A stretch of 64,000 nucleotides of DNA from assembly GCF_056746865.1 (NCBI RefSeq), contig NZ_CM163382.1, one strand, 5' to 3'. Position 1 is the stretch's first letter. Each line of letters opens with the position of its first letter. Shown in pieces: positions 1,875-45,424 of this stretch. The position numbers and the translations under genes are program-made. A model generated the notes under the pieces. It did no database searches, was not told the DNA's origin, and was given only the letters and a program-made list of their open reading frames with translations.

Positions 1875-1887
1875 CACCTTCTTATTC
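1875..1887. other. Prophage attachment site core, int-proximal (attL); 13-bp CACCTTCTTATTC
   Basis: Exact 13-bp direct repeat of 44579..44591; lies between the potC start and the integrase gene. Confidence 0.6.
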
Positions 1888-2032
1888 ATAAGGCGGGACA
1901 CTTTCAGGATTTTGAATTTATTCAATTTTTCCCTTTCTCCAAAATCTCTCCAAAACGTTTCCCCAAAACTAGGCCACGCATTTTACAACACTTTTTTCCT
2001 GAGATGGTGACGGATATTCCATATGGTGTTTG

Positions 2033-3151
2033 TCAAATAACCAACTTAACCCATTCCTGACCTCGAGTATCGTTATAGCGATCGGTGGTTGCCTGGACTT
2101 TATGTCCTAGTAATGTTTTTGTATCGATACCCTGTGCACGGTACAGCCGTTCTGATAGAGAGCGTTGTTCATGAAATGTTGGCGGAGTTTTTCCTGCTGG
2201 TGGAATTATCCCAGCCAGATCCCGTGCTTTGGCAAAGTAGTCGCTCAGGTTGTCTTTACTCATCGGCTTCGGTTGTTTCTGGTGCCGACTATGGATTAGA
2301 TATGGACTTAATATTCTGTCTCGGCACCCATCAATAACTTCTTTTAACGTTATCCCAATGGCATCACAGCGTAGTGTAAGCGGTAACGCCAGACGCATTC
2401 CGGTTTTTCCCTGGGTGATATGCAAGTGTTCGTTCCACACATCTGAAAAACGCATGTGGCAAATGTCATCACGGCGCTGACCAGTAACAATCGCAAGAAG
2501 CATTGCGTTACGGATAAAGTGTTTTTCAGGCGTTGCATTGTAAATTTTTTGCCAGTCTTCCATGGTGAGCCTGGCTCTGGTTACTTTAGGGATCGGTTTA
2601 CGGGTAGCCTCCGGAGGATTCCATCCAGGAGGAACTTCCCCTGCATGCTGTGCTTCTTTATAAATATCAACCCATAATCCACGATTTACTCTCGCTGTGC
2701 TGACCATGTCTTTATCCAGCCACTCATCCAGTATTAATGCAAAGTCTCTTACTTCCAGTTCTTTCAATGGGTGGTTTCCCAGACGGGAAACCAGGTATGC
2801 AGCCATTCGAGTTTTTTCTTTGTGAGTTGTAGCTGCAATATCTCCATTTTTCAGTCGCGTGTTCTGTATTTTCAGATATCGATCAACCCATGCCTTTAAT
2901 CTGATACCCCGACGTTTTGTTGCTGACGGACTTTCATCAATTTTGCGCATGAAATATTCAGCTTCTGCTGCAGCTATTCGCTGATTGGCTGTGGAAGCGA
3001 TTTTTTCTGCCTTACCTTTGTCTGTTCCGAGTCCGTGAAATTTTCCAGTCACAGGATTTTTATACTGGTAGTAAACTCTGCCAGTTCTGCGATCAAACTT
3101 TTCGTAAAGACCGGCTACGTCAGTGCTGTTTTTTCGTGGCCTCGGTGACAT
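2033..3151 (-). CDS. int: Phage tyrosine integrase (lambda Int family)
   Basis: 372 aa; C-terminal LLGHKVQATTDRYNDTRGQEWVKL resembles the lambda Int catalytic tail; adjacent to att core. Confidence 0.9.
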   Translation of the reverse strand: MSPRPRKNSTDVAGLYEKFDRRTGRVYYQYKNPVTGKFHGLGTDKGKAEKIASTANQRIAAAEAEYFMRKIDESPSATKRRGIRLKAWVDRYLKIQNTRLKNGDIAATTHKEKTRMAAYLVSRLGNHPLKELEVRDFALILDEWLDKDMVSTARVNRGLWVDIYKEAQHAGEVPPGWNPPEATRKPIPKVTRARLTMEDWQKIYNATPEKHFIRNAMLLAIVTGQRRDDICHMRFSDVWNEHLHITQGKTGMRLALPLTLRCDAIGITLKEVIDGCRDRILSPYLIHSRHQKQPKPMSKDNLSDYFAKARDLAGIIPPAGKTPPTFHEQRSLSERLYRAQGIDTKTLLGHKVQATTDRYNDTRGQEWVKLVI

Positions 3152-3389
3152 GAGTTAAAATCTCCTTCAGTGCATCATCATCGCCAGTATGAATTTCCGG
3201 CGCAATTCCCGTTTCACCAGGCCCAACAAATACTGCTCGGCGATCTATCAGCCAACGCCCACGAATTTTTTGTGGTCTTGGAACGATGTATCCTAGTTTT
3301 CCGTATTTCACCAGGGTAGTGTTTGTTATTGGGAGACTGAACCGTTTTGGTTTCCACTCGTCGAGCGTTATCAGGTACTGTTCGCTCAT
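3120..3389 (-). CDS. xis: Excisionase (Xis-like)
   Basis: Small basic ORF directly upstream of int and overlapping it; GGAG 8 nt before the ATG at 3389 (track ORF extends to a GTG at 3398). Confidence 0.65.
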   Translation of the reverse strand: MSEQYLITLDEWKPKRFSLPITNTTLVKYGKLGYIVPRPQKIRGRWLIDRRAVFVGPGETGIAPEIHTGDDDALKEILTHVTEATKKQH

Positions 3390-3450
3390 GGCTATCACTC
3401 CGGAACGCGCCAGTTGCAGAATATCAACGACAACTGGCGACGGTTGAACA

Positions 3451-5889
3451 TTAAAAATCAGCCTGACTCGGGATCAGTTTTTGCCAGATAACTGAAACGT
3501 ATTTTGCCTGGTAACGGGCGTCATCAAGTGCATTATGGCGCTCACCTTCGAATGGAATAGCCGTTCTGGCATCGAAGTCTATGGCTTTCCCCAGCTCAAC
3601 GATTGTGCGTACATCTCGATCGTTGTAGTAACGCCACGGGCAGGGGATCCCCTGCCGTTCGTATGAACGGCGCAAAATCGTGTTGTCGAAGTTGGCTCCA
3701 TTTCCCCAGACCTGAACAAAAAATTCACCGGAGTTTTCGTCGATAAATTCCCGCAATTGTAACAGTGCATCATCTAACGGGATTTCATCGGTCATAATGG
3801 CAGATTGCGCTTCGCGTGATTGCTTAAGCCACCATTTAATGGTGTCCCGATCAATGACCCCGCCAGCAGTTTCCAGATCGATAGTCTTACTAAATTCCGG
3901 TCCCATATCTCCGGTTTGCGGATCGAAAAATATTGCACCTATTGAGATGATCGGGGCATCAGGATTTTTTCCCATGGTTTCAAGGTCGATCATTAGATGG
4001 TCACACGTCCTGCTGGTGGATGTGATAACGTGATGACCGTTCACCGTAATTAAGGGATCTGCCGTCTCGCCAGTTTCACTATCGCTGGCGTGATCCTGAG
4101 CGCTGCCAGCATTCTCCTTGTGTGGATGTTCAGCGCCTTCCATTTCCTTCGGATCATTTTCCTGAACTTCAACCTGATTCTCTTCATCGAATGTTTCCTG
4201 GTATGTTGCGTCGCCCATCACCGCGCCACAATCAGGGCAGTTGCCGCCGCCGGTCTGACCGCAGGCGGTGCAGATCTTTTCCGGTTCCTGTTGCACTACT
4301 GGTTCAGGTTGTTTCGTTTCTGGCTCGTTTTGTAACGCATTTGGGCTGTTTTGTTCCGCTTTCTGGTCGTTCTGTTCCGATTCTTGCTGGTTCTGGTTTA
4401 CAGAATCGCGGGTTTCAATCCCCTTTACCCATTTCGGATCATTCGGGTCGCTAATCCCTGCAACAAATTCTCCGCGAGAGGCAGCAAGCAACTTATCGGC
4501 GTCAGGCTGGCTGATATTGGCTGCCTGCATAATTTTGTTTACTTCGTCAGCGGTAACTTTTACCTGTGACTTGTCATCCAGCGGCTGCGGGTCCTGATGA
4601 TGTTCAACTGTATCCGCTGCCATTGTTTCAGCCGTTGCCTGTTCATCTGCCATTGCGCCAGATGGTTGCGGGTTATCTTCATCATTTTTTTCTTCTTCTG
4701 TTTTGCACTCAGCAGCCAGTCCGCCGTTAATTTCTTCCAGGATATCTTTTTCCGGTGTATGCCGGGCAGCCATGAGCGTTTCAGCTGTGGGATTCTCGTG
4801 ATCAGTTTCTGTCAGGTTGGCATTGATATACCCCTGAAGGCGCCCCGGGTAGTGATAAAACTCAGGGTGGGCGCTTCGGATAAGTGCAAAAATAGCTGCG
4901 CGGGAATAGTCCAGGATACCAGGGGTTGCGCGAAGTGCTGCGGACCATTCCCTGAACGGACTTTCTTTTTTCAGGACGATTTCTTTTGCGCGACGATAAA
5001 CGCTGCCCGGAATTTCATAAATATTAAAATCCATCGGAAGTGTGGCTGCTGCAATCTCCACATCCAGCGCATCGAAGGTGTGTACTAAATTCGGATTGCG
5101 ATCGGTTTTGTTCCCGCCACCGGCATTTGCACCGGAAGCCGTACGGGTGATACGCGAAACACGATTTCCTTTCATCCACTCTTTTGTCAGCAGACCCCGA
5201 TCAGTGTAATCAGCGTCCAGGTATGCCTCGAAAAAAGCAGTTATCAGTCCCAGGTCTGAATTACCGGGATTAGGGAAAACTTTGTCAGTGTCGCGTACCA
5301 GTTTGTGAAGGTCGCGAATCTCCAGCGGGTCGAGCAGCTTTGTTTTGTGAGAAATGGCCAGGGCAGTAACAGCCGGCAGTTCTTCCGCCCGTGCTATATG
5401 TAATGCCTGAAGTTCTTCCCGTGCAACGTGCGTTACTGGTTTTTCGCTGCTGTGTTGCGCAAGCCAGCGAATGGGCAGCTCCTGACCAGAAACCGGCAGG
5501 AGCATATTCTCCTCAATCTCCGTCATGTCTTCGCCGTTGACGTTGGTATTGTCAGTACTGGCTGGTTTCTCCTGCACGGAGGGAGAGGGCGCGATAAATA
5601 CCATTGTAATGCCATCTTCCCCGCCTTTTTCGTATCGGTTGCAGAATTCGGTATCAAACACGCCTTCAGGTGGAAGGTCATTCACAACGGGTAAATGGAC
5701 GCGAACGGGTTTTTTAAAGTCGTCTTCATCATAATCGTTGTCATCCATTGCGGTAATGCAGCGGGAGATGGCAACAGATAATTTTTTTGCTGTAGTCCAG
5801 TAAAAACCACCTTTAATTCCCAGACGTTTTCTGACTTTGTCATTTTTTGCTTCGCAATATAGCGCAAATTCTTCTTTATCAGTGCTCAT
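3451..5889 (-). CDS. Large prophage exonuclease-like protein (DEDDh-type 3'-5' exonuclease C-terminal domain, acidic linker, Cys4 zinc ribbon)
   Basis: 812 aa; C-terminal motifs [23 protein letters not shown] resemble DnaQ-like Exo I/II/III; CTACG...CPDCG zinc ribbon; position equivalent to recE/exo in lambdoid early-left operons. Confidence 0.6.
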
Positions 5890-5981
5890 TGATAAACCTC
5901 ATTACAGATTTAAGGGTGAACAAATCCCTGCCATTGCTGGCATTTTTAATCCGTTGGTATGGTGTTAATATGGCTGGAGGG

Positions 5982-6170
5982 TTATCCAGCCGGTGTTTCG
6001 TTATTCAGGTACAGCGATACTTTTTTTACCGGGAGGCATTCACCAGAAATTTTTTGCTCGTCTCTTGCCTGGAGGCAGGATTCTTTACTGGCATAAATTC
6101 CGGTAATCACATTCTGTGATTCACCCGTTATAAGAAAAACCGTCATCATCAGTGCAAATGCTGAAGTCAT
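5982..6170 (-). CDS. ydfD: YdfD-like small protein
   Basis: 62-aa ORF immediately downstream of dicB-like gene, as in the Qin dicB operon; N-terminal hydrophobic stretch. Confidence 0.45.
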   Translation of the reverse strand: MTSAFALMMTVFLITGESQNVITGIYASKESCLQARDEQKISGECLPVKKVSLYLNNETPAG

Positions 6171-6355
6171 TGACGCTCTCCGAAAATACCAAGTTCAAGA
6201 AGAGCAATTCGGGAAAGTATGGAATTATCATTGAGCAGATAAGGCTCATATTTCCTCATATTAATGGCATCTTCAGTAAACTCCCGGTTACTGAGCAGAA
6301 CACCAATATCAAAACAACCTTCAGACGTATTAACGTTTGGTAATAACGTTTCCAT
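6167..6355 (-). CDS. dicB: DicB-like cell-division inhibitor
   Basis: 62 aa, METLLPNVNTSEGCFDIGV...FTEDAIN closely matches the DicB N-terminus as recalled; sits downstream of a DicF-like sRNA. Confidence 0.75.
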   Translation of the reverse strand: METLLPNVNTSEGCFDIGVLLSNREFTEDAINMRKYEPYLLNDNSILSRIALLELGIFGERQ

Positions 6356-6532
6356 TATCGCGTCCTCAACAATGAATTTTGTGATGCAGTGCCTGGTGCC
6401 TCCAGGTGACGTTAACCAGTTAACAATTAACGCCGGGTTAGTTGATGCTCGTTACGCCAGTAAAAGACCGCCTTACTGCTTTAACTGTTCCGCGTGCGCA
6501 TAGCCGCATTCACCGCATCACAAAATTCACTT

Positions 6533-6590
6533 TAAAAAGGGCGGCAGAGCAGTCACGGAGTAAAACTGATACCGCCAAACGTCACCAGAA
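6533..6590 (-). ncRNA. dicF: DicF small RNA (ftsZ-targeting sRNA) with intrinsic terminator
   Basis: Minus-strand sequence TTTCTGGTGACGTTTGGCGGTATCAGTTTTACTCCGTGACTGCTCTGCCGCCCTTTTT matches DicF as recalled; GC hairpin plus T-run; conserved position upstream of dicB. Confidence 0.75.
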
Positions 6591-6895
6591 AATTGATAAC
6601 AGAGGGCGTTGCAGCGGGGTTGTCACTTAAGCGTATGGTCAACCTGACAACCCGGTGTCCTCAACGGGGAAGGAATAACCCCGTCATACTTACCGCCGCG
6701 CCATTTCGCGGAGTGTCACAACCGGAAGCGCACGGTCGACGAAAATTTAACGACAGGCTATCTATGAACCAGCTACCTCGCCGTGCGCTTTCGCGTTATG
6801 GTCTGACTTTTCATGGAAATATCCTTTCAGTAAACTGTCAGTGCCGGATTCTTATCCGTGTCCGGCGCACGCACTCTACCTCACCTGTGAATAAA

Positions 6896-7270
6896 TTAAT
6901 GATTAATTGATATTTTGTTGTTTGATTCAACTTTCCCATCGGATGTGTGATGCTTTAAATCACAGGAATTAATACTGCTTGCTGTAAAATGATTTTCAAG
7001 GGGAGCTATTCGAATCCCTTTCTTTTTCATTAACAAGCCAAATCCTTTATTAATGATGTCCATTAATTCCAGAAAGTATTTTTCATGTAAATCCTGGTTA
7101 TCAGAGAGCTGCTTCTCTTCGTACAGCCCGATAAAGGCTCGGCGTACGTTACCGGATATATTGTCGATGGTTTCTTTTTCTACGGTACTCAGGTCAAGAG
7201 TCGCCAGTTGAGAGCGAACCACATTCGCTGCCATTTCCTGGAATGGCATTGGTAAATCTTTAAATTCCAT
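6896..7270 (-). CDS. Hypothetical protein, 124 aa
   Basis: ORF in the early-left operon between ydfC-like gene and dicF; no recognisable motif. Confidence 0.4.
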   Translation of the reverse strand: MEFKDLPMPFQEMAANVVRSQLATLDLSTVEKETIDNISGNVRRAFIGLYEEKQLSDNQDLHEKYFLELMDIINKGFGLLMKKKGIRIAPLENHFTASSINSCDLKHHTSDGKVESNNKISINH

Positions 7271-7292
7271 TATTAGCCTCGTTGGTTAGCTA

Positions 7293-7511
7293 TTAACGCG
7301 GGTATGTAATCATTCTGGCAATGCTTAATGCCGCTGCTTTTTCCAGCCTGGTGATATCCTGCTCCAGAGCGGACAGATTTTCAGCCTGCTTAGCCCTGGC
7401 TTCATTGGCCCATTTCAGGTCCTGCGCAGCCTTAATTTTCTGGTGTATCCACTCATAAAGTTCATCATCGGTATAGTCTGGCGCGATGATGACGGGTTCT
7501 CGTTTCTGCAT
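7293..7511 (-). CDS. ydfC: YdfC-like protein
   Basis: 72 aa; operon position after ydfA/ydfB homologues as in Qin. Confidence 0.5.
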   Translation of the reverse strand: MQKREPVIIAPDYTDDELYEWIHQKIKAAQDLKWANEARAKQAENLSALEQDITRLEKAAALSIARMITYPR

Positions 7512-7540
7512 ACTGATTCCTCGCGGTGCTGTTTCGCTTA

Positions 7541-7669
7541 TCAGCCGTTAGATTTTGCCGAACTGGAAAGCGCCTGTTTAAACTCACTGAAGCTGAGGGC
7601 TTCTTCGCCTTCGGCAAGGCCTTCGAAGTATTCTTCGTAAGCCTTTTCCATGATTGTGTTGAAATCCAT
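7541..7669 (-). CDS. ydfB: YdfB-like small protein (42 aa)
   Basis: Minus-strand ORF MDFNTIMEKAYEEYFEGLAEGEEALSFSEFKQALSSSAKSNG found by manual translation; below the 60-aa track cutoff. Confidence 0.5.
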   Translation of the reverse strand: MDFNTIMEKAYEEYFEGLAEGEEALSFSEFKQALSSSAKSNG

Positions 7670-7670
7670 A

Positions 7671-7826
7671 TCACTCACCTGAGTTTCTTTCCAGCCAGCG
7701 ACGGGCACCATTTTCGGTTTTAAACGTTTTGCTTTTGGTATACGTCATCGCGGTGAACGTACCGTCCTGGTTGGGGAACACGCCACATACCAGAGATTCG
7801 CTGTTGCCAAGATCGATAGTATCCAT
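7671..7826 (-). CDS. ydfA: YdfA-like small protein (51 aa)
   Basis: Internal Met of track ORF 7671..7907 (MDTIDLGNSESLV...); GAGG RBS upstream; first gene of the leftward early operon. Confidence 0.5.
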   Translation of the reverse strand: MDTIDLGNSESLVCGVFPNQDGTFTAMTYTKSKTFKTENGARRWLERNSGE

Positions 7827-8070
7827 GCTGACCTCATTTCCCCTTAACGCCGGGGTAGCGGAACAAAAACCTGCTGCATAGTTATTAAAGTTGAACCCTG
7901 CCGTCATGTTCTTACGCCTCGGGCTGGCTACTTAACCCCTGACCACTGCCGGGTAACTCGAAGTATTTCCCTGCGTTCTGTGGGGCGGGGTGGGTTGGTA
8001 TGTTGTTAATGTAACAAGAGTTACCTTTCGAGTCAATACAATGTTGCAAAAGGTACATTTGAGGGCATAA

Positions 8071-8095
8071 AAAACCCGCAATGAATGCGGGTTCT
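8071..8095 (-). terminator. Intrinsic terminator downstream of repressor gene
   Basis: Hairpin ACCCGCA-ttca-TGCGGGT followed by T-run on the minus strand, immediately 3' of cI stop. Confidence 0.5.
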
Positions 8096-8098
8096 GAC

Positions 8099-8872
8099 TC
8101 AGTCTAAGTATTGATGTATTTGTGAAACTTTACCTTTAATGGTGTAACCACCATTCAGTTCGATGGGTTTGTAAAGCGGATTCAGTGACAACAAATAGAT
8201 GTTTGGTCCGTCAATCGCAACTTTTTTTAGTGTTACGTTTGGCGTTCCTTCCAATTGGATTAAGATTATTTTTCCCACCAGTTCTCTAATGTTACTTGAG
8301 CATGGTGTGATCAGCACGGTAGATCCGTCGGGGATGGTTGGGAGGCCGTTAGAGTTTGTCATCGCATCTCCCTCAACATGCAATAAAAAAGAGTTTTCAG
8401 CGGTTTTTGTCATGACATCAACCCAGTTATTAATACCAGGAATCTTGGTTACTGGACAACTCATATCCCAATAACCAGCCTGTTCCCACGTTAAAACGGG
8501 CAACCGGGCGATGTTGTCACTAATGTAAGGGTACTGATTCAGACGCAGATCATCGGTTTTATCGTGACAGTCCTTTCCATAAAGAATCCATTCAGGAGAT
8601 TTGGAAAGCAATTTTGACAGTAGATACAAATTCTCACCGTCAGGTTTTGAAGAGCCATTTTCCCATTTTGTTACGGATACACGAGATATGCCGATTGCTT
8701 TCGCAACCTGCTGTTGGGTTAATCCAACGTCTTTTCGACGATTCCGAATACGTTCGCTGATAGTGTTTTTCATGTAACCAATGTTACTACCAAGTGATGT
8801 TGCTATGGTTGACATTGTTATGTAACTATTGTTACCCTTCTGCTCGAAATAACAGGAGAGTTTTATGTTCAA
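8099..8872 (-). CDS. cI: CI-like phage repressor (XRE HTH plus S24 LexA-like peptidase domain)
   Basis: HTH region GLTQQQVAKAIGISRVSVTKWENG; C-terminal S24-like region; divergent from cro-like gene; likely true start at ATG 8815 (MSTIATSLG). Confidence 0.85.
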   Translation of the reverse strand: MNIKLSCYFEQKGNNSYITMSTIATSLGSNIGYMKNTISERIRNRRKDVGLTQQQVAKAIGISRVSVTKWENGSSKPDGENLYLLSKLLSKSPEWILYGKDCHDKTDDLRLNQYPYISDNIARLPVLTWEQAGYWDMSCPVTKIPGINNWVDVMTKTAENSFLLHVEGDAMTNSNGLPTIPDGSTVLITPCSSNIRELVGKIILIQLEGTPNVTLKKVAIDGPNIYLLSLNPLYKPIELNGGYTIKGKVSQIHQYLD

Positions 8873-9080
8873 AGATGATGTTCTGCGCTATTTCAAAAAA
8901 AAGCGACTAGTAGCTGAGGCTCTTGGAATTTCACATGTGGCTGTTGTGCGGTGGAAAGCAGTTATTCCCAAACTTCGCGCAATGGAACTGGATGAAATTA
9001 CTAACGGTGAATTGAAATACAACCCAGAACTTTACAAGAAGCAGGATAGCACCTCGAACGAAGGAAAGAATGATTCATGA
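8865..9080 (+). CDS. cro: Cro-like HTH regulator
   Basis: 71 aa, LVAEALGISHVAVVRWK HTH; strong RBS AGGAGAG; divergent from cI. Confidence 0.7.
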   Translation: MFKDDVLRYFKKKRLVAEALGISHVAVVRWKAVIPKLRAMELDEITNGELKYNPELYKKQDSTSNEGKNDS

Positions 9081-9502
9081 AAATCAAGCATGAACACATC
9101 CGCATGGCGATGAATGTCTGGGCGCATCCGGACGGCGAAAAAGTACCGGCTGCGAAAATTACCAAAGCGTATTTCGAGCTGGGAATGACGTTCCCGGAAC
9201 TGTATGACGACAGCCATCCGGAAGCCCTGGCCCGTAATACCCAGAAAATTTTCCGTTGGCTGGATAAAGACACCCCTGATGCTGTTGAAAAAATGCAGGC
9301 TCTGTTACCGGCGATCGAAAAGGCGATGCCGCCTTTGCTGGTGGCCCGTATGCGCAGCCACAGTTCTGAATATTACCGTGAGATCGTCGAACGGAGGGAT
9401 CGGCTGGTGAAGGATGTCGATGATTTTGTTGCGTCAGCGGTTGTTTTGTATGACCAGATGAATCGCGGCGGCCCGGCAGGGAATGCTGTGGTGATGCACT
9501 AA
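9077..9502 (+). CDS. YdaT-like protein (CII-position regulator/toxin family)
   Basis: 141 aa starting MKIKHEHI, as Rac YdaT; ATGA overlap with cro stop. Confidence 0.55.
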   Translation: MKIKHEHIRMAMNVWAHPDGEKVPAAKITKAYFELGMTFPELYDDSHPEALARNTQKIFRWLDKDTPDAVEKMQALLPAIEKAMPPLLVARMRSHSSEYYREIVERRDRLVKDVDDFVASAVVLYDQMNRGGPAGNAVVMH

Positions 9503-9509
9503 AAGCACG

Positions 9510-10487
9510 GTGTTCGGGGGTTTTATGAGCAGCAAGCTTCATGGTCTTGTCTGGGAAGGGTGCGCCTTCACCGGCATGATCTTATCCAGGGTGGCGGTTA
9601 TGGCCCGTCTTGCAGACTACAGCAATGACGAGGGCGTGTCATGGCCTGCCATTGAAACTATCCGGCGTCAGATCGGTGCAAGAAGTGAATCCACAGTGAA
9701 ATCGGCTATTGCAGAACTGGCGAAAGAGGGCTGGCTGACGAAGGAAGAGCGTAAGGTCGGTGGGCGTAATGTAAGCAATATCTATCGGCTTAATGTGGAA
9801 AAACTCGAAGCAGCTGCGGCGGCGGCGCGTGAGTCATATAAACCGAAAAGAAAAATTAGCCCGGCAAAAAATGACCCGTTAACAGTTGACCCGTCAAATA
9901 TTGACCCCTCAACGGTTGACCCGTCAAATTTTGATGGATCAACTGTTGATAAAAAACTGCCGATTAGGGGGGCGATGATTGACCCCGATCCGTCAGTATT
10001 AAAACCTGATCCGTCAGATAAAAGATCTTCTTGTCCGGACGCTTCGCAACCGGACCCGCAGACGGCTGAACAGGATTTTTTAACCCGACACCCTGACGCG
10101 GTTGTGTTCAGTGCGAAAAAACGCCAGTGGGGAAGTCAGGAAGATTTGGTGTGCGCACAGTGGATCTGGGGACGAATCGTGAGTCTTTACGAGCAGGCGG
10201 CCAGCGATGATGGCGAGATCACTAGACCGAAAGAACCCAACTGGACAGCATGGGCCAATGACGTTCGCACAATGCGGATGCTGGATGGCAGAACTCACAG
10301 ACAAATTTGTGAAATGTTTGGGCGTCTCCAGCGGGATTCGTTCTGGGTAAAAAACATCATGAGTCCGGCAAAACTCCGGGAAAAATGGGATGAACTGGTT
10401 ATCCGCCTGGGGCGTTCGCCTGCGCAGCGTTGCGTGAATCACATTTCTGAACCGGACACTGAAATACCGCCGGGATTCAGGGGGTGA
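9510..10487 (+). CDS. Replication initiation protein (lambda O functional analogue, YdaU-like)
   Basis: N-terminal winged-helix-like region; internal DNA iterons; immediately upstream of DnaC-like loader; start may be ATG 9525. Confidence 0.6.
   Translation: MFGGFMSSKLHGLVWEGCAFTGMILSRVAVMARLADYSNDEGVSWPAIETIRRQIGARSESTVKSAIAELAKEGWLTKEERKVGGRNVSNIYRLNVEKLEAAAAAARESYKPKRKISPAKNDPLTVDPSNIDPSTVDPSNFDGSTVDKKLPIRGAMIDPDPSVLKPDPSDKRSSCPDASQPDPQTAEQDFLTRHPDAVVFSAKKRQWGSQEDLVCAQWIWGRIVSLYEQAASDDGEITRPKEPNWTAWANDVRTMRMLDGRTHRQICEMFGRLQRDSFWVKNIMSPAKLREKWDELVIRLGRSPAQRCVNHISEPDTEIPPGFRG
9880..10020. repeat. Iteron cluster (candidate phage origin) inside the replication initiator gene
   Basis: Repeated TTGACCCGTCAAAT / TTGACCCCTCAACGG / TGACCCCGATCCGTCAG units, encoding DPSN/DPST peptide repeats. 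Confidence 0.5.
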
Positions 10488-10493
10488 CGTGTC

Positions 10494-11240
10494 ATGAAAA
10501 ACATTGCGGCAGTTGGGGTTCTTGAACGTATTCGCAGACTTGCACCACAGGGGTCGGTTCCACCGTACCGGACGGTGGAGGAGTGGCGGGAATGGCAACT
10601 TGCTGAAGGACGAAAACGCAGCGAGGAGATTAACCGCCAGAATCGCCAGTTGCGGGTGGAAAAAATCCTGAATCGTTCGGGCATCCAGCCTCTGCACAGC
10701 AAATGCTCGTTTGCAAATTATCAGGTGCAGAACGACGGGCAAAAATACGCGCTGAGCCAGGCCAAATCCATAGCTGACGAACTGATGACCGGGTGCACGA
10801 ATTTTGTGTTCAGCGGTAAAACCGGCACCGGGAAAAATCACCTTGCAGCGGCGATGGGCAACCGGCTGATGGTGAAGGGGCGCAGCGTGATTATCGTCAC
10901 CGTGTCTGACGTCATGAGCGTGTTGCATGACAGCTACGACAACGGCAAATCCGGGGAAAAATTTTTACAGGAGCTTTGCGGGGTTGATTTGCTGGTCCTG
11001 GATGAAATAGGCGTTCAGCGGGAGACGAAAAACGAGCAGGTGGTATTGCACCAGATAATTGATCGCCGGACAGCATCACTGTGCAGTGTCGGGATGTTAA
11101 CAAACCTGAATCATGCCGCAATGAGTACGCTTCTTGGTGAGAGGATTATGGACCGCATGACCATGAACGGTGGTCGATGGGTGACGTTTAACTGGGATAG
11201 CTGGCGTCCAAATGTCAGCAATATGAGGGTTGTGAAGTAA
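10494..11240 (+). CDS. DnaC-like helicase loader (IstB-like AAA+ ATPase)
   Basis: Walker A GKTGTGKNHLAAA and Walker B LLVLDEIG. Confidence 0.85.
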   Translation: MKNIAAVGVLERIRRLAPQGSVPPYRTVEEWREWQLAEGRKRSEEINRQNRQLRVEKILNRSGIQPLHSKCSFANYQVQNDGQKYALSQAKSIADELMTGCTNFVFSGKTGTGKNHLAAAMGNRLMVKGRSVIIVTVSDVMSVLHDSYDNGKSGEKFLQELCGVDLLVLDEIGVQRETKNEQVVLHQIIDRRTASLCSVGMLTNLNHAAMSTLLGERIMDRMTMNGGRWVTFNWDSWRPNVSNMRVVK

Positions 11241-11261
11241 TTTTGTCCGGAGGAAATTTTA

Positions 11262-12032: not shown

Positions 12033-12047
12033 TTGCCGGAGGCGCTT

Positions 12048-35200: not shown

Positions 35201-35244
35201 TGGGCATAAACAGATTCAGACATCAGACAGGAGAGGGGGAGCGA

Positions 35245-38200
35245 GTGGGTAAAGGTGGCGGTAAGGCGCACACACCGCGCGAGGCGAAGGATAATCTCAA
35301 ATCCACGCAGATGATGAGTGTGATTGATGCGATTGGTGAGGGACCGATAGAAGGTCCGGTGAAGGGACTGCAGAGTATCCTGGTGAACAAAACCCCGCTG
35401 ACGGACACGGACGGTAATCCCGTGATACACGGTGTGACCGCGGTCTGGCGTGCCGGGGAGCAGGAGCAGACACCACCGGAAGGCTTTGAGTCCTCCGGAG
35501 CTGAAACCGGACTGGGCGTGGAAGTGACGAAGGCAAAACCGGTGACGCGCACCATTACGTCCGCGAACATTGACCGCCTGCGGGTTACCTTCGGGGTGCA
35601 GTCACTGGTGCAGACCACGTCAAAGGGTGACCGTAACCCGACATCCGTCCGCCTGCTGATTCAGTTACAGCGTAACGGTAACTGGGTGACAGAAAAGGAC
35701 GTCACCATTAACGGCAAGACCACCTCACAGTTCCTGGCCTCGGTGATTCTGGATAATCTGCCTCCCCGGCCCTTTAACATCCGGATGGTCAGGGAGACGG
35801 CGGACAGCACCACGGACCAGCTGCAGAATAAGACGCTGTGGTCGTCATACACCGAAATCATCGATGTGAAACAGTGCTACCCGAACACGGCCATTGTGGG
35901 GCTGCAGGTGGATGCGGAGCAGTTCGGCGGCCAGCAGATGACGGTGAACTACCATATCCGCGGTCGCATCATCCAGGTGCCGTCAAACTATGACCCGGAA
36001 AAACGCACGTACAGTGGTATCTGGGACGGCAGCCTGAAACCGGCATACAGCAACAACCCGGCCTGGTGTCTGTGGGACATGCTGACTCACCCGCGCTACG
36101 GCATGGGAAAACGTCTGGGGGCGGCGGATGTGGACAAGTGGGCGCTGTATGCCATCGGGCAGTACTGCGACCAGACGGTCCCGGATGGTTTCGGGGGGAC
36201 CGAGCCGCGGATGACCTTTAATGCGTACCTGGCACAACAGCGTAAGGCGTGGGACGTTCTCAGTGATTTCTGCTCTGCGATGCGCTGTATGCCGGTATGG
36301 AACGGCCAGACGCTGACGTTCGTTCAGGACCGTCCGTCGGATGTGGTGTGGCCGTACACCAACAGCGATGTGGTGGTGGATGATAACGGCGTGGGTTTCC
36401 GCTACAGCTTCAGTGCCCTGAAGGACCGGCACACGGCAGTGGAGGTGAATTACACCGACCCGCAGAACGGCTGGCAGACCTCCACGGAACTGGTGGAAGA
36501 CCCGGAAGCCATACTGCGCTACGGACGCAACCTGCTGAAGATGGACGCGTTCGGCTGTACCAGCCGCGGTCAGGCCCACCGTGCCGGGCTGTGGGTGATA
36601 AAGACCGAACTGCTGGAAACGCAGACGGTGGATTTCACGCTCGGGTCACAGGGGCTGCGTCACACACCCGGTGACATCATTGAAATCTGTGATAACGACT
36701 ATGCCGGGACCATGACCGGCGGACGTGTCCTGTCCATCGATGCCGCCAGCCGTACCCTGACGCTGGACCGGGAGGTGACACTGCCGGAGACCGGCACGGC
36801 CACTGTTAATCTGATTAACGGCAGCGGTAAGCCGGCGAGCGTGGCCATCACCGCACACCCCGCGCCTGACCGGATACAGGTCAGCACCCTGCCGGATGGT
36901 GTGGAGACATACGGTGTGTGGGGACTCTCCCTGCCGTCACTGCGTCGTCGCCTGTTCTGCTGTGTCTCCATCCGGGAAAACACGGACGGCACGTTCGCCA
37001 TCACGGCGGTGCAGCACGTACCGGAAAAAGAAGCCATTGTGGATAACGGGGCCAGCTTTGAGCCGCAGTCAGGCAGCCTGAACAGCGTTATCCCACCGGC
37101 AGTGCAGCACCTGACGGTGGAGGTGAGTGCAGCTGACGGTCAGTATCTGGCACAGGCGAAATGGGACACGCCGCGGGTGGTGAAGGGTGTGCGCTTCAGT
37201 CTGCGTCTGACCAGCGGAAGCGGAGAAGACAGCCGTCTGGTGAGCACCGCCATCACCGCAGACACGGAGCACCGTTTCAGTGGTCTGCCGCTGGGGGAAT
37301 ACACCCTGACGGTGCGGGCCATTAACAGCTACGGCCAGCAGGGCGAACCTGCGACCACCACCTTCCGGATTAACGCGCCTGCAAAACCCGCCACCATTGA
37401 GCTGACGCCGGGGTATTTTCAGATAACGGCGGTCCCGCGTCTTGCGGTGTATGACCCGACGGTACAGTTTGAATTCTGGTTCTCAGAAAAACGCATCACG
37501 AACACGGCACAGGTGGAAAAATCTGCCCGTTATCTGGGGACCGGCAGTCAGTGGACTGTCCAGGGGAGCCGGATTAAGCCGGGGACGGATTTCTGGTTTT
37601 ACGTGCGAAGCGTCAACCTGGTGGGAAAATCTGCTTTTGTGGAAGCCAGCGGGCAGCCCAGCAATGATGGTGAAGGGTATCTGGAAATTTTCCGGGGGCT
37701 GATAGATGAGACGCTTCTGGGCCAGGCACTGAAAGAGCGCATTGATGCTTCAGCGCTGCGTACGGAGGTCACGCAACTGGAAGAAGACATCCGTCAGCGG
37801 ATGGACACGGATATCGCAGAAGTGACCCGGAAAATCGGGGAGGCGGAAAACAGCCTCACGCAGCTGGTTGCGAAAAAGAATGAGGACCAGACACTGGCCA
37901 TCGCGCAGGTGAGCCAGAAAGTGGACCGGGTGAGCAGTGAAATCTCACAGACTGTCAGCCAGGGGCAGTCAGAAAATGCCCGACAGATAGCACAGGTCCG
38001 CCAGTACGTGGATAAAAAAGGGAGTGAAATTACCTCGACCACGGATAAAAAACTGGGTGACCAGGCCGTGACCATACAGCAAATCCAGCGGGTTCAGTCA
38101 GACACGCGCAATGAGCTGAATGCCATGTATATGCTGAAGGTGCAGAAAACAAAAAACGGTATTCCCTATGTGGCCGGGATTGGTGCGGGGATTGAGGATG

Positions 38201-38937
38201 TTGATGGTCAGACGCTGAGCAGTATTCTGCTGCAGGCTGACCGTATCGCGATGATTACCCCGGAGAACGGCAACACCACGCCGCTGTTTGTGGCGCAGGG
38301 GAATCAGCTGTTCATGAACGACGTGTTCCTGAAGCGACTGTTTGCGGTGAGCATCACGTCATCCGGCAATCCTCCGACGTTTTCCCTGACGCCGGATGGC
38401 AGGCTGACAGCCCGCAATGCGGATATCAGTGGAGCCATCACGGCGAATACCGGCACGCTCAATAATGTCACCATTAACGAGAACTGTGTCATCAGAGGGA
38501 AACTGTCTGCAAACCAGATTGAAGGCGATCTCGTTAAAACAGTGGGTAAGGCTTTCCCTCGTGACTCCCGTGCACCGAAGCGGTGGCCATCAGGAACCAT
38601 TACCGTCAGGGTTTATGACGATCAGCCGTTTAACCGGCAGATTGTTATTCCGGCGGTGGCTTTCAGCGGTGCCAGACATGAGCGGGAGAACAGCGATACT
38701 TATTCGTCATGCCGCCTGATAGTGAAGAAAAACGGTGCTGAAATTTATAACCGTACCGCGCTGGATAATACGCTGATTTACAGTGGTGTTATTGATATGC
38801 CAGCTGGTCGCGGCCACATGACGCTGGAGTTTTCTGTATCAGCATGGTGGGTAAATGGCTGGTATCCCACAGCAAGTATCAGCGATTTGCTGGTTGTTGT
38901 GATGAAGAAAGCCACTGCAGGCATCACGATTAGCTGA
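35245..38937 (+). CDS. J: Host-specificity / central tail fibre protein J
   Basis: About 1230 aa, GTG start ([21 protein letters not shown] as lambda J); collinear with lambda J with an extra coiled-coil-like segment. Confidence 0.92.
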
Positions 38938-38957
38938 ATTTTATAACCCCAATACGG

Positions 38958-38985
38958 GCGCCAGAAATGGTGCCTTTTTTATTGC
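38958..38985 (+). terminator. Candidate intrinsic terminator between J and lom
   Basis: GGCGCC-agaaat-GGTGCC hairpin followed by TTTTTT. Confidence 0.5.
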
Positions 38986-39004
38986 AGAAAAGCGAGAGGT
39001 AATT

Positions 39005-39604
39005 ATGCGTAAAGTTTGTGCAGCCATTTTGTCCGCAGCCATCTGTCTGTCCGTATCCGGTGCGCCTGCATGGGCGTCTGAACATCAGTCCACACTGAGC
39101 GCAGGGTATCTTCATGCCCGTACGAACGCTCCCGGCAGCGATAATCTGAACGGGATTAACGTGAAATACCGTTATGAGTTTACGGACGCGCTGGGGCTGA
39201 TTACGTCCTTCAGTTATGCCAATGCTGAGGATGAGCAAAAAACGCACTACAGCGATACCCGCTGGCATGAAGATTCCGTGCGTAACCGCTGGTTCAGCGT
39301 GATGGCGGGGCCGTCTGTACGCGTGAATGAATGGTTCAGCGCGTATGCGATGGCGGGTGTGGCTTACAGCCGTGTGTCGACTTTCTCCGGGGATTATCTC
39401 CGCGTAACTGACAACAAGGGGAAAAAGCACGATGTGCTGACCGGAAGTGATGACGGTCGCCACAGCAACACGTCTCTGGCGTGGGGAGCTGGCGTGCAGT
39501 TTAACCCGACCGAATCCGTGGCCATTGATGTCGCTTATGAAGGCTCCGGCAGCGGTGACTGGCGTACCAACAGTTTCATCGTTGGTGTCGGTTATAAGTT
39601 CTGA
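39005..39604 (+). CDS. lom: Outer-membrane protein Lom (Ail/Lom family)
   Basis: 199 aa, signal peptide, beta-barrel pattern ending GVGYKF. Confidence 0.9.
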   Translation: MRKVCAAILSAAICLSVSGAPAWASEHQSTLSAGYLHARTNAPGSDNLNGINVKYRYEFTDALGLITSFSYANAEDEQKTHYSDTRWHEDSVRNRWFSVMAGPSVRVNEWFSAYAMAGVAYSRVSTFSGDYLRVTDNKGKKHDVLTGSDDGRHSNTSLAWGAGVQFNPTESVAIDVAYEGSGSGDWRTNSFIVGVGYKF

Positions 39605-39630
39605 TTAGCCAGGTAACACAGTGTTATGAC

Positions 39631-39657
39631 AGCCCGCCGGTTCAGGCGGGCTTTTTT
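39631..39657 (+). terminator. Intrinsic terminator after lom
   Basis: GCCCGCC-ggttca-GGCGGGC plus TTTTTT. Confidence 0.7.
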
Positions 39658-39662
39658 GTGGA

Positions 39663-42600
39663 GTGGATATGGCAGCAGTAAAAATCTCAGGTGTGCTGAA
39701 AGATGGCACAGGAAAACCAGTACAGAACTGCACCATTGTGCTGAAGGCCAGACGAACCAGCAGCACGGTGGTGGTGAACACGGTGGCCTCTGAAAATCCG
39801 GATGAAGCCGGACGTTACAGCATGGATGTTGAGCATGGCCAGTACAGCGTCACCCTGCTGGTTGAAGGTTTTCCGCCTTCACATGCCGGGACCATTACCG
39901 TCTATGAAGGTTCCAGACCAGGTACGCTGAATGATTTTCTCGGTGCCATGACGGAGGATGATGTCCGACCGGAGGCACTGCGCCGCTTTGAGCAGATGGT
40001 GGAAGAGGTGTCACGTAACGCCTCCGCGGTTGCACAGAATACGGCAGCCGCGAAAAAATCAGCCAGCGATACCAGTGCATCAGCCAGCGAGGCGGCAACT
40101 CATGCAACCGATGCTGCAGCCTCAGCACGTGCCGCCAGCACGTCAGCCGGACAGGCCGCGTCGTCGGCTCAGTCAGCGTCTTCCAGCGCAGGAACGGCAT
40201 CGACAAAGGCCCGTGAAGCAGCAAAAAGTGCTGCTGCTGCAGAGTCATCAAAAAGCGCGGCAGCTACCAGCGCCAGTGCCGCGAAAACGTCAGAAACGAA
40301 TGCCGCAGCATCACAAAAATCGGCAGCCACTTCTGCATCCACAGCGACCACGAAGGCGTCAGAAGCTGCCACCTCGGCACGGGGTGCGGCGGCCTCAAAA
40401 GAGGCAGCGAAATCTTCAGAAACGAATGCATCATCAAGTGCCAGTAGTGCAGCTTCCTCGGCAACGGCGGCAGGAAATTCCGCGAAGGCGGCAAAAACGT
40501 CCGAGACGAACGCTAAGTCTTCTGAAACAGCAGCGGGACAGAGCGCCTCAGCTGCGGCAGGTTCAAAAACAGCGGCTGTATTATCTGCCAGTGCCGCGTC
40601 AACAAGTGCCGGGCAGGCCTCAGCCAGTGCCACCGCCGCCGGAAAATCGGCAGAAAGCGCCGCATCATCCGCTTCAACAGCCACAACGAAGGCTGGCAAA
40701 GCCACTGAGCAAGCCACTGCAGCAGCGAGGTCTGCTTCTGCAGCAAAAACCTCTGAAACAAATGCAAAGACTTCAGCAGACAATGCTGCTTCCTCTAAGG
40801 CGGCAGCCGCATCGTCAGCCAGTTCAGCGGCGTCATCGGCATCATCTGCGTCTGCTTCAAAAGATGAGGCGACCAGACAAGCGTCAGCAGCGAAAGGTAG
40901 TGCCACGACAGCAACAACGAAAGCATCAGAGGCGGCAGGCAGTGCGACGGCTGCATCTCAGAGCAAAGTTGCTGCTGAATCCGCGGCAACGCGCGCCGAG
41001 ACAGCAGCAAAACGGGCAGAGGATATTGCATCCGCCGTGGCGCTGGAGGATGCGAGCACGACGAAAAAGGGGATAGTACAGCTCAGCAGTGCAACAAACA
41101 GCACCAGTGAAAAGCTGGCGGCAACGCCAAAGGCAGTTAAAACTGTTAAAGATAGTTCAGTTCAAAAAACTGGCGACACAATGGGAGGGCAGTTAAAAAT
41201 CAGCACGATAAATGCTCTTCGAATATTCAACCAAGCCTTTGGCCTTATTTTTAGGCGTTCCGAAGATCATCTTCATCTTATTCCGACTAATGAAGGGGAG
41301 GGGGAAAATGGAGACATCGGTTCATTAAGACCATTCTCTATAAACTTAAGATCAGGGTTGGTGTCCATCGGTAATGGACTAAAAGTTGGTGGTAGTGTTA
41401 CTGGTAATTTGACCGGAAACGCAGATACTGCGACCAAGATCAAGACAGCACGTAAGATTGGGGGCGTGGCATTTGATGGATCGGCAGATATCAACTTGCC
41501 TGGAGTCAACGCTACCGGTAATCAAAACACTACAGGTAATGCTGCGACCGCCACGAAACTTCAGGCAGCCAGAACGATTAACGGTGTGTCATTTGATGGT
41601 AGTGCAAATATCACATTGACCCCTTCAAATATTGGGGCATTGGCATTAACTGGAGGGACTCTTTCAGGTGGTTTAACTGCTGCTGGTGAGGTTATTTCAA
41701 GGTCAGCAAATGGTCTGCGTATTGCCTATGGCAACTATGGATTCTTTATCCGAAATGATGGATCAAACACATATTTTATGTTGACAGATTCGGGTAACAG
41801 TCTTGGTACGCACAATAGCTTAAGGCCGTTTATAATTAGTAACCATACTGGCAATGTTACAATTGCAACTAAATTAAACGCGAGTGGTGGTATCACTGGA
41901 TCTTTATCGGGTAATGCAAGCACAGCAACCAAATTGCAAACTGCAAGGACAATTAACGGCGTAAAATTTGACGGCTCGGCAAATATTGAAGCGTTTCCGC
42001 CAGGTGTTCCGCTGCCGTGGCCATCAGATACACCACCTGCAGGTTATGCAATCATGCAGGGGCAGACGTTTGATAAGGCAGCATATCCGAAACTGGCTAT
42101 TGCCTATCCTTCAGGTGTTATTCCAGATATGCGCGGCTGGACAATCAAGGGCAAACCCGCCAGTGGCCGGGCCGTATTGTCTCAGGAACAGGACGGCATT
42201 AAATCGCACACCCACAGCGCCAGCGCATCCAGTACGGATTTGGGGACGAAAACCACATCGTCGTTTGATTACGGCACTAAATCCACGAATAACACCGGGG
42301 CGCATACGCACAGTCTGAGTGGCTCTACGGGGTCTGCCGGTGTTCATACTCATGGTAATGGTATTCGTTGGCCAGGAGGCGGCGGTTCTGCGTTAGCATT
42401 TTATGATGGCGGTGGGTTCACTTATGTCCAGAATTCACAGTATCAAGTAAGCCCGGAGACTTCTTCCTATAGATCGTATTATCAACGTATTCAGACACAG
42501 TCAGCAGGTGCTCATACCCACTCGCTGTCTGGTACTGCAGCAAGTTCTGGCGCACATGCACATACTGTAGGTATTGGTGCGCATACGCACTCCGTTGCGA

Positions 42601-42698
42601 TTGGTTCACATGGACACACCATCACCGTTAACGCTGCGGGTAACGCGGAAAACACCGTCAAAAACATCGCATTTAACTATATTGTGAGGCTTGCATAA
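39663..42698 (+). CDS. stf: Side tail fibre protein Stf
   Basis: 1011 aa; N-terminus [23 protein letters not shown] and C-terminus ...[18 protein letters not shown] as lambda Stf; long Ala/Ser-rich repeats. Confidence 0.9.
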
Positions 42699-43282
42699 TG
42701 GCATTCAGAATGAGTGAACAACCACGGACCATAAAAATTTATAATCTGTTGTCCGGAACTAATGAATTTATTGGTGAAGGTGATGCATATATTCCGCCTC
42801 ATACAGGTCTGCCAGCAAACAGTACCGATATTGCACCGCCAGATATTCCGGCTGGCTTCGTGGCTGTTTTCAATAGTGATGAGTCATCGTGGCATCTCGT
42901 TGAAGACCATCGGGGTAAAACGGTTTATGACGTAGCGTCAGGGGACGAGTTATTTATTTCTGAACTCGGTCCGTTACCGGAAAATGTTACCTGGTTATCG
43001 CCGGAAGGGGAGTTTCAGAAGTGGAACGGCACAGCCTGGGTGAAGGATACGGAAGCAGAAAAACTGTTCCGGATCCGGGAGGCGGAAGAAACAAAAAACA
43101 ACCTGATGCAGGTAGCCAGTGAGCATATTGCGCCGCTTCAGGATGCTGCAGATCTGGAAATTGCAACGGAGGAAGAAACCTCATTGCTGGAAGCCTGGAA
43201 AAAGTATCGGGTGTTGCTGAACCGTGTTGATACATCAACTGCACCTGATATTGAGTGGCCTACGAACCCTGTCAGGGAGTAA
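42698..43282 (+). CDS. tfa: Tail fibre assembly protein Tfa
   Basis: 194 aa, [18 protein letters not shown]... as lambda Tfa. Confidence 0.9.
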
Positions 43283-43336: not shown

Positions 43337-44005
43337 CTATTTTTTCCCTGAAGCGGAAAACATTACTACAGTACCTTGAACCTTGGTTTTAACATTCTCG
43401 AAATGCTCTGAGAGTATATGTGTTAAGCCTTCTTCGGAATCTTTTGTGTTTGAAAAGATGCCTTTCTGATTGTAAATGCGCATCAGTTTTTGACCGAAGC
43501 TATTGTGCACAACTCCATCGCCAAGAATTGTGGCTCCGTATAGAGTTCCATCGTCAGTTAAGGCCTGCGCCGCATTGCGTATTACACAGCTTTTTGTAGA
43601 TATATTTCCAGGCAGGCAGTGAAGAAGGTAAAACATGGAAATGGAATCAAATTGACCATGTAACGCCGCGGGATAAGGTTCAAAAACATCATGGCTAATT
43701 TTATGTTTAATTTTTGATTCCCCAGCCCTTGTAGATGCCGCGTTCAGGCTAGCTTCGTTCAAATCCATTAAAGATATCAGACTACTCTCAGGTACGTGAG
43801 TAAGGTAAAACCCAGTTCCAACACCAATATCCAGATGGTTGTTACCTAAATGTTCCAGAAAGTGTGGAAGAAGGTGTTCCTTTGTAGGACATCCCCATGC
43901 AAGCCGATTTGATACTCCCAAAACCCACCAGTCATAAAGCTTTAGGGTAAGTGGTGTGTAAATTTTAGCCCCATCATCTGTGTTTTTTTTCATTGATTTC
44001 ACCAT
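43337..44005 (-). CDS. Class I SAM-dependent methyltransferase-like cargo protein
   Basis: 222 aa; motif-I-like LDIGVGTGFY; AT-rich relative to flanks; opposite strand to the tail genes. Confidence 0.6.
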   Translation of the reverse strand: MVKSMKKNTDDGAKIYTPLTLKLYDWWVLGVSNRLAWGCPTKEHLLPHFLEHLGNNHLDIGVGTGFYLTHVPESSLISLMDLNEASLNAASTRAGESKIKHKISHDVFEPYPAALHGQFDSISMFYLLHCLPGNISTKSCVIRNAAQALTDDGTLYGATILGDGVVHNSFGQKLMRIYNQKGIFSNTKDSEEGLTHILSEHFENVKTKVQGTVVMFSASGKK

Positions 44006-44061
44006 GTTATAGTTTTATTTGTAAATTAAATCAATTATGGCGATGAATTACAAGGGGTTAA

Positions 44062-44328
44062 ATGCTGCCGCAGCATAGCGATATTGAAATAGCCTGGTAT
44101 GCTTCGATACAGCAGGAGCCGAATGGCTGGAAGACCGTCACCACACAGTTCTACATCCAGGAATTCAGTGAGTATATTGCGCCACTGCAGGATGCTGTAG
44201 ATCTGGAAATCGCAACGGAGGAAGAAAGATCGTTGCTGGAGGCATGGAATAAATATCGGGTGTTGTTGAATCGTGTTGATACATCAACTGCACCTGATAT
44301 TGAGTGGCCGACTTCACCTGCAGAGTAA
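44062..44328 (+). pseudogene. Duplicate 3' fragment of tail fibre assembly gene (tfa remnant)
   Basis: C-terminal 53 aa nearly identical to Tfa C-terminus; DNA 44174..44310 repeats 43124..43260. Confidence 0.6.
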
Positions 44329-44560
44329 TCAACGGCGCAGGGATGATATTTTGTGCTTGAAGTGCCTCCCCGACCATTCAGATAGTCGGGGAGGGGGGAT
44401 TGGGATTATACGCAATCAGTTTTAGTTAAAGACCGAAGTTCTCGAAAAATCTTTCTCCAAAACCAGAATGCAATTGATTGATTTTGATAGGATCTATAAT
44501 GCCGTTACCTTAAACGGCAAAACCACTCAAAAACAAACCTAATGCATTGAATATAAAGGA

Positions 44561-45424
44561 TTAATCATCTAATTCGCTCACCTTCTTATTCAGCAAACGA
44601 GAAGCGCGCCAGTAAACCAGCAACATCAGGCCCATTACGATAGTCAGCGTAATGCTGGTGGCTGCACCAAACGGCCAGTCACGAATATTGAGGAACTGTA
44701 CTTTGATGACGTTACCGATCAGCAGGTTTTTCGCACCGCCCATCAGGTCGGACACATAGAACAGGCCCATCGCTGGCAGCATCACCAACAGGCATCCGGC
44801 AATAATCCCCGGCATCGTCAGTGGGATAATGATACGGATAAAGGTCTGCAACTTGCTGGCACCGAGATCGCGCGCCGCCTCCAGCAACGGCTTATCCAGT
44901 TTTTCGATACTCGAGTACAGCGGCATCACCATAAACGGCAGCAGAATGTAAACCAGACCGATAATCACCGCACTGGGTGTGAACATGATGCGAATTGGTG
45001 TATCGATAACGCCCAGCCAGAGCAAAAACTCGTTGAGATAGCCTTTGGTGCTGAGGAAAATTTTCAGCCCGTAGATACGAATCAATGAGTTGGTCCAGAA
45101 CGGAACAATCAGCAGAAACAGCAGCAGCGGACGCACCTTGTGTGGCAGCTTCGCCAGAAACCAGGCAAAAGGATAGCCCAGCACCAGGCAGGCGAGGGTG
45201 GCGATCAGCGCCATATTCAGCGAGTGCAATAGCACTTCAAAATAGAGCGGATCGAGCAGACGCGTGTAGTTATCCAGCGTAAAGACCATTTTGACGAAAC
45301 TGGCGTCGTCGCGGGTCAAAAAGCTGGTGCCAATGATCATCAGGTTGGGCAGAAAGACAAACAACACAAGCCAACCGACAATAGTGACAATCACTACATT
45401 CTGGAACTTACTTGTGTTCTTCAT
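44561..45424 (-). CDS. potB: Spermidine/putrescine ABC transporter permease PotB (3' end supplied by prophage sequence)
   Basis: Polytopic membrane ORF overlapping potA stop; C-terminal codons lie on the phage side of the att core; start may be the downstream GTG (about 45394). Confidence 0.9.
44579..44591. other. Prophage attachment site core, distal (attR); 13-bp CACCTTCTTATTC
   Basis: Exact direct repeat of 1875..1887; lies within the 3' end of potB. Confidence 0.6.

Follow-up and report, generated by a model that had tools for sequence, protein, structure and literature searches.

What becomes of the spermidine/putrescine uptake operon potABCD when a phage genome lies within it, and what kind of phage is it? 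This question is raised by a stretch of 64,000 nucleotides (contig NZ_CM163382.1 of RefSeq assembly GCF_056746865.1; hereafter the window) whose minus strand carries every pot gene. The preliminary description, made from the sequence alone, had placed potAB and potCD about 42.7 kb apart on either side of a prophage, and the mapped boundaries bear out this separation, the intervening element being 42,704 bp long. We conclude with high confidence that positions 1875–44592 hold a defective lambdoid prophage of the ΦpotB/Sp6/PP_potB family, with which it shares integration at the potB 3' end between potB and potC, the integrase and the arm adjoining the left attachment site (attL). The site and the phage family are already published, and near-identical prophages are annotated in RefSeq. 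The pot genes and the two junctions were mapped as follows.

29–1075 (−): potD, periplasmic spermidine/putrescine-binding protein; intact, 100% identical to the annotated potD of CFSAN061770 (NZ_CP023142.1)
1072–1866 (−): potC, permease; intact, its ATG overlapping the TGA that closes the native potB sequence kept at attL (translation, RefSeq annotation)
1875–1888: attL core copy, CACCTTCTTATTCA; potB sense strand TGAATAAGAAGGTG; holds the Shine-Dalgarno-like AAGGTGG of potC
44579–44592: core copy of the right attachment site (attR), CACCTTCTTATTCA
44561–45424 (−): potB with a phage-supplied 3' end, 287 amino acids ending ..NKKVSELDD and a stop (translation)
45408–46544 (−): potA, ATPase, first gene of the operon (open reading frame, ORF)

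A 13-bp direct repeat had been proposed to bracket the element. The 13-mer, CACCTTCTTATTC, was found at two positions of the window only, 1875 and 44579, and the count did not change when one mismatch was permitted. The repeat is therefore real at both positions, but its length had been understated: alignment of the two copies extended the identity to 14 bp (CACCTTCTTATTCA, 1875–1888 and 44579–44592), with unrelated sequence outside. Because the window contains 24 maximal exact direct repeats of at least 14 bp (73 pairs of identical 14-mers as compared to ~8 in shuffled sequences), repeat length alone is no evidence for the boundaries, which have to be decided by position and by the empty site. 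An empty-site query of 405 nt was assembled from both flanks with a single core copy between them, and 5426 complete Escherichia coli (E. coli) genomes were used for all junction counts. The query matched E. coli 042, ST2747 and others without a break at 100% identity, and was present in one piece, annotated as potB/potC, in 3800 genomes (~70%). A query for attL (potC plus int) was found in one piece in 1600 genomes (~30%), indicating that some 30% carry a prophage with this integrase at the site and some 70% are empty. With the attR query, unoccupied genomes, K-12 derivatives included, matched from query base 140, i.e. window position 44579, the first base of the core. The core thus occurs once in the contiguous potB-potC of the 3800 genomes and twice around the element. 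This comparison with the unoccupied locus had been named beforehand as the one able to overturn the insertion model; it returned the core in single copy and boundaries nowhere else.

The insertion does lie between potAB and potCD, although the crossover falls within the last potB codons, over the Shine-Dalgarno sequence of potC and 8 nt before the ATG of that gene, and not literally at the junction of the genes as had been described. In the reconstruction, native PotB terminates in ..RLLNKKVELE, with a TGA that shares bases with the potC ATG (ATGA). Both the translations and the reconstructed empty site confirmed that the int-proximal copy retains this native junction, so that at attL neither the native end of potB nor the ATG of potC is altered. 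At the distal copy, phage DNA past the attR core ends the potB frame with five codons of its own (SELDD) and a stop, where the native gene has three codons (ELE); translation of 44561–45424 gave the ..NKKVSELDD end that had been predicted, and the same 864-bp potB (i.e. a 287-aa PotB) is annotated by RefSeq in lysogens. As read from the sequence, the Shine-Dalgarno-like AAGGTGG of potC is located within the core, 7 nt before the ATG, so that both junctions contain it and the copy preceding potC is intact. Since potB is completed at attR whilst its native end and the potC start are kept at attL, both permease ORFs are intact and the operon is split.

The altered last residues of the short cytoplasmic tail of PotB are probably functionally neutral, because only these residues, beyond the last hydrophobic segment, differ. 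Five variants of the phage attachment site (attP) were examined and all gave a 287-aa PotB with the tail [VA][STN][ED][LI]D[DN] before the stop. Selection on the phage-encoded tail was considered and rejected: the five variants are alike in length and sequence, but their differences are mostly nonsynonymous and conservation continues beyond the stop, so that conservation of Int-binding DNA would explain the tail just as well. A mini-ORF was also observed at attL (1863–1889, minus strand), in which the phage base beside the core makes an ATG that is in frame with the potB codons kept there; it reads ATG-AAT-AAG-AAG-GTG-GAA-CTC-GAA-TGA (MNKKVELE) and its stop overlaps the potC ATG. A role in translational coupling was set aside because three of the four possible bases at this position give a start codon and no Shine-Dalgarno sequence lies upstream; the mini-ORF is probably a coincidence.

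The means of integration are encoded next to attL, and candidate binding sites are present in both arms.

2033–3151 (−): integrase (Int), lambda-Int-type tyrosine recombinase of 372 amino acids (structure alignment, PHROG integrase)
3120–3389 (−): excisionase (Xis) (PHROG 629 excisionase, E = 4.6e-26; RefSeq annotation)
1936–1969 (+): P arm, three tandem TC[TC]CCAAAA[TC] spaced 11 and 13 bp apart, candidate arm-type Int sites (motif)
44365–44463: P' arm, a hairpin with a 13-bp stem (44365–44394) and one arm-type candidate, TCTCCAAAAC (44454–44463)

Int aligned with the lambda Int structure 1Z1B over residues 26–371 (E = 4e-54), and the catalytic set R-K-H-R-H-Y is kept, with VTGQR, KTG, FHEQRS, LLGHK and RY at lambda R212, K235, H308, R311, H333 and Y342. 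Copies of TC[TC]CCAAAA[TC] start at 1936, 1947 and 1960 in the int-proximal P arm and at 44454 in the P' arm, and the exact 9-mer of this motif is found nowhere else in the 64 kb; it is plausible that these copies are arm-type Int sites. The element entered by lambda-Int-type site-specific recombination between the phage attP and a 12–14-bp core (TGAATAAGAAGGTG on the potB sense strand). Both int and xis are intact, and the element may still be able to excise. The hairpin at 44365–44394 (CCTCCCCGACCAT/ATAGTCGGGGAGG) is part of the distal arm, ~190 bp away from the core, and, in the circular phage, would fall downstream of int, which is the position of lambda sib/tI.

The reconstructed attP was not contiguous in any of 50,697 phage records. 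Those records with the int-side half (vB_EcoS-640R1 and 813R8) carry host potCD DNA in place of the other half, and a record of a Shiga toxin (Stx) 1a phage has the same distal (P') arm, core and potB flank. In the vB_EcoS-640R1 record (ON470612.1), ~12.8 kb of host DNA (ycfZ, ymfA, potD and potC) is present to the left of attL, which could be either an overhang of prophage prediction or packaged flanking host DNA.

For gene content, blastn showed the prophage to be 99.996–100% identical to that of CFSAN061770, two differences apart, and the RefSeq annotation of that genome could therefore be transferred to the window. PHROG searches concurred with the transferred map, and Rfam detected DicF, sok, STnc100 and IS009 within the element.

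3451–8815 (−): early-left operon and repressor (coordinate mapping, Rfam, PHROG), the next six lines
3451–5889 (−): RecE-like exonuclease
within the early-left operon (−): ydfD-like gene
6167–6355 (−): dicB
6539–6590: DicF small RNA (Rfam)
within the early-left operon (−): ydfC-, ydfB- and ydfA-like genes
8099–8815 (−): LexA/CI-type repressor
8865–17737 (+): early-right operon, with Cro-like, YdaT-family, DUF968 and RusA genes among others (RefSeq mapping, PHROG)
9525–11240 (+): replication genes
14987–15311: hokD/sok, in the early-right operon
17183–17737 (+): Q-like antiterminator
18251–19524 (+): IS3-family insertion sequence (IS) element, orfA/orfB with frameshift; coordinates of the ORFs, not of the IS ends (CFSAN061770 annotation)
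19880–20215 (−): iraL-type RssB anti-adaptor gene, cargo
20476–33438 (+): late genes present, i.e. SASA/NanS-like esterase, holin, lysozyme, Rz, small and large terminase subunits, gpW-like protein, portal, S49 protease and head decoration protein
33496–34416 (+): chimeric ORF of 306 aa, major capsid codons 1–84 fused in frame to a gpK-like C40 peptidase; joint at 33748
34413–43282 (+): tail-tip and fibre genes, i.e. gpI-like, gpJ (35245–38937), Lom (39005–39604), tail fibre (39669–42698) and tfa (42698–43282)
43337–44005 (−): class I S-adenosylmethionine-dependent methyltransferase, moron-like (RefSeq mapping, PHROG)
44155–44328 (+): duplicated tfa 3' fragment

The element identified in the preliminary description as a prophage between the repeats is indeed one, with Int, Xis, a repressor, a Q-like protein and lysis, head and tail-tip genes. 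It is lambdoid in having Xis beside int, a CI-like repressor with Cro, a Q-like gene and lysis genes; its morphogenesis module is incomplete. Between the Q-like gene (17183–17737) and the esterase (20476) no stx genes were present, the region being made up of the IS3-family element, STnc100 and iraL; with neither stxA nor stxB downstream of Q, this is not an Stx-converting phage.

As compared to CFSAN061770, the window lacks 7,835 bp, from codon 85 of the major capsid gene to codon ~26 of the gpK-like C40 peptidase gene, and also lacks an IS4 (target site 5928–5939). The joint at 33748 is in frame and shows 1 bp of microhomology. PHROG matches to the resulting chimera split at residue ~85, the first 84 residues belonging to major head and the remainder to minor tail protein families. 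The genes for gpFI, gpFII, Z, U, V, G, T, H, M and L, including head-completion, tail-tube and tape-measure genes, are lost. With gpFI through gpL gone, the element cannot build virions alone; judged by its gene content, this copy is thus predicted to be defective and to produce no virions on its own. The IS3-family element after the Q-like gene is common to the full-length relative, where the corresponding place is annotated as 'IS3 family transposase, programmed frameshift'. The position of this element, past the Q-like gene and ahead of the late genes, is the one expected for the late promoter and terminator.

Splitting of the operon could alter the transcription of potCD. As far as documented, the operon has a single promoter, located before potA, and that side is now 42.7 kb from potC, so that potCD would no longer be transcribed from the potA promoter. 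Reading in the same direction as potC, int ends with a stop codon 166 nt before the potC ATG. On that strand the scan gave no terminator-like site between int and potC, and the 211-nt RNA across this interval was no more structured than shuffled sequences (z = +0.67); transcription crossing int should therefore continue into potCD. We propose that potCD mRNA would arise from polymerase leaving the co-directional int during basal or induced early-left transcription or, alternatively, from a weak promoter within either the P arm or the 3' end of int; read-through or a weak resident promoter is the most likely source. A relaxed scan returned weak promoter candidates only, the best being TTGCCA-19-TGgGATAAT at 2235–2205 (minus strand) in the int 3' end, and none of these is claimed as the potCD promoter. 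In a transcriptome of strain CFT073, which is a ΦpotB lysogen, potD was measurable and ~2.5-fold regulated (PMC8716947), which indirectly and weakly suggests that potD is transcribed in such a lysogen. On the other side of the element, transcripts of potAB would run into the phage right end, where a small hairpin (44504–44521) and the hairpin with the 13-bp stem (44365–44394) precede the co-directional methyltransferase gene. In the library searched, no literature was found on polar effects at the potB/potC site.

Several points weigh against this account of a defective prophage with potCD transcribed from within it. The arm-type sites are motif candidates only. The early-left operon should be largely silent in a repressed lysogen, and no sigma-70 consensus promoter reached threshold when 1000–3600, from xis to potC, was scanned. 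In addition, the capsid-gpK joint was present in 0 of the 5426 complete E. coli genomes, and an assembly error is possible.

This last point, together with the near-complete identity of the rest of the prophage to the full-length CFSAN061770 copy, would suit an intact, inducible temperate phage whose capsid-to-gpK deletion is an assembly artefact. Such an explanation was judged unlikely. The joint must be either private to the source strain or an assembly error, and a real deletion is favoured because the joint is a clean, in-frame fusion with 1 bp of microhomology and no repeat able to collapse an assembly. A further point against an intact phage is that an IS3-family element separates the Q-like gene from the late genes even in the full-length relative.

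About as improbable is a reversible switch (i.e. active lysogeny), in which potCD would be effectively silenced in lysogens by loss of the promoter and excision by Int and Xis would restore an intact potABCD and spermidine uptake. The distance of 42.7 kb from the documented promoter and the lack of a consensus promoter upstream of potC are consistent with such a switch, as is the survival of int, xis and both att sites in an element that has lost virion genes, a pattern typical of domesticated switch elements. However, known switch phages disrupt their target gene, whereas here both ORFs are kept intact; potC also retains its ribosome-binding site and ATG, with no terminator between it and int. 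The measurable potD transcript reported for the ΦpotB lysogen CFT073 also speaks against silencing, and the relatives at this site are ordinary full-length phages or phages carrying Stx or effectors. A defective prophage, with potCD supplied by read-through or a weak resident promoter, is accordingly preferred.

We are similarly doubtful that the prophage rewires polyamine uptake, with potCD placed under prophage control, low or silent in the repressed state, and either raised upon SOS induction through early-left/int read-through or brought back by excision. If this were true, a split transporter would be kept usable by two adaptations, the conserved PotB tail that the phage encodes and the ribosome-binding site that potC retains. 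No paper was found that measured a change in potCD expression or polyamine uptake due to the split operon. Beyond annotation, the locus has little significance, being a catalogued prophage and Stx-phage site of a published family with the 287-aa PotB already annotated; the point of general interest is the physiological effect of having the spermidine/putrescine uptake operon split by this phage in about three of every ten sequenced E. coli. In one lysogen, O145 RM12367-C1 (NZ_CP031345.1), the gene downstream of potC is a truncated solute-binding pseudogene, i.e. a potD without its C-terminus, a single case of potD decay beside the same prophage.

Further observations concern the cargo genes and the chromosomal surroundings. 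The published iraL 5'-RACE sequence of CFT073 matches 20217–20248 (minus strand) with two mismatches, directly upstream of the ORF at 19880–20215. The window contains two RssB anti-adaptor paralogues that are 60% identical: this prophage gene of iraL type (19880–20215, minus strand) and the chromosomal iraM (57426–57749, minus strand), which adjoins icd. At the right end of the prophage, the methyltransferase gene is flanked by tfa and the duplicated tfa 3' fragment, with exact repeats of 16 bp (43163/44212) and 38 bp (43223/44272), as if the moron had been inserted by duplication; the Rfam IS009 match is located at 43041–43239. Outside the prophage, the 3' end of icd (56073–57323) carries no insertion of the e14/phage 21 type. 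The region after icd (57400–63500) has a low GC content (35–37%), encodes IraM, a MerR/MlrA-like regulator (59077–59808) and an EAL-domain protein (60013–61302), and resembles the iraM-ycgX-bluR-bluF region of K-12.

The closest published counterpart is Φ-CFT073-potB, the 'potB genomic island' of uropathogenic E. coli CFT073 (PMC3573123; PMC4632033; PMC4045071), on which iraL has been reported (PMC4045071). The two elements share 370 of 372 Int residues, the same Xis protein accession, the same insertion point, an identical attL, the PotB tail ..NKKVSELDD, the right-end cargo of methyltransferase and tfa fragment, the dicB/ydf early region and the iraL gene. The CFT073 prophage differs in its length of 45.2 kb, a complete lambda-like set of head and tail genes, tRNA genes and an IS200, whereas the copy in the window is 42.7 kb, lacks gpFI through gpL and has the IS3-family element; the immunity and replication genes also differ. 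Despite the abundance of exact direct repeats of this length in the window, the notion of a chance repeat with the true element ends elsewhere can be dismissed, refuted as it is by a reconstructed empty site that is identical and contiguous in thousands of genomes and by unoccupied-genome matches that begin at the first core base, and opposed further by an attL shared with CFT073 and, but for one P-arm base, with the O145 prophage.

Other members of the family occupy the same site in enterohaemorrhagic E. coli (EHEC). Sp6 of O157:H7 Sakai is flanked by potC on the left and potB on the right (PMC8190617), PP_potB is found at this site in O157 clade 8 (PMC9997748) and 'potC' is among the listed insertion sites of Stx phages (PMC8065619). 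The prophage of O145 RM12367-C1 has 368 of 372 Int residues identical, differs by one base in the P arm of attL and likewise gives a PotB of 287 aa. In the EHEC relatives (O145, O157 and O26) the shared core is only 12 bp, CCTTCTTATTCA, as compared to 14 bp for the phage in the window; their distal arm differs, giving a 12-bp repeat and a PotB tail of ..KKATEIDN or ..KKATEIDD. They also have different morphogenesis genes (an HK97-like capsid/portal set) and carry the type III effectors NleL, EspN and EspK as right-end cargo.

The recombination system resembles Int, Xis and attP of lambda in having a tyrosine integrase with an arm-binding N-terminal domain and a full catalytic set, an xis that overlaps int, and a short core between arms bearing repeated motifs. 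The core sequence and target differ, lambda using the intergenic gal-bio site, and the candidate arm motif, TCTCCAAAA, is unlike the lambda arm sites. Prophages that replace the terminal codons of a host gene are familiar from phage 21 and e14 at icd. Integration and excision of Rac likewise change terminal residues, in this instance of ttcA (PMC4632033). As at icd and ttcA, the potB core lies within an ORF and phage DNA supplies the terminal codons, such that the host gene stays open. The potB case differs in that only three residues are replaced by five and that the phage has entered one of the inner genes of an operon of four, which is consequently split; icd, on the other hand, is a monocistronic gene, and the end changed by Rac is an N-terminus.

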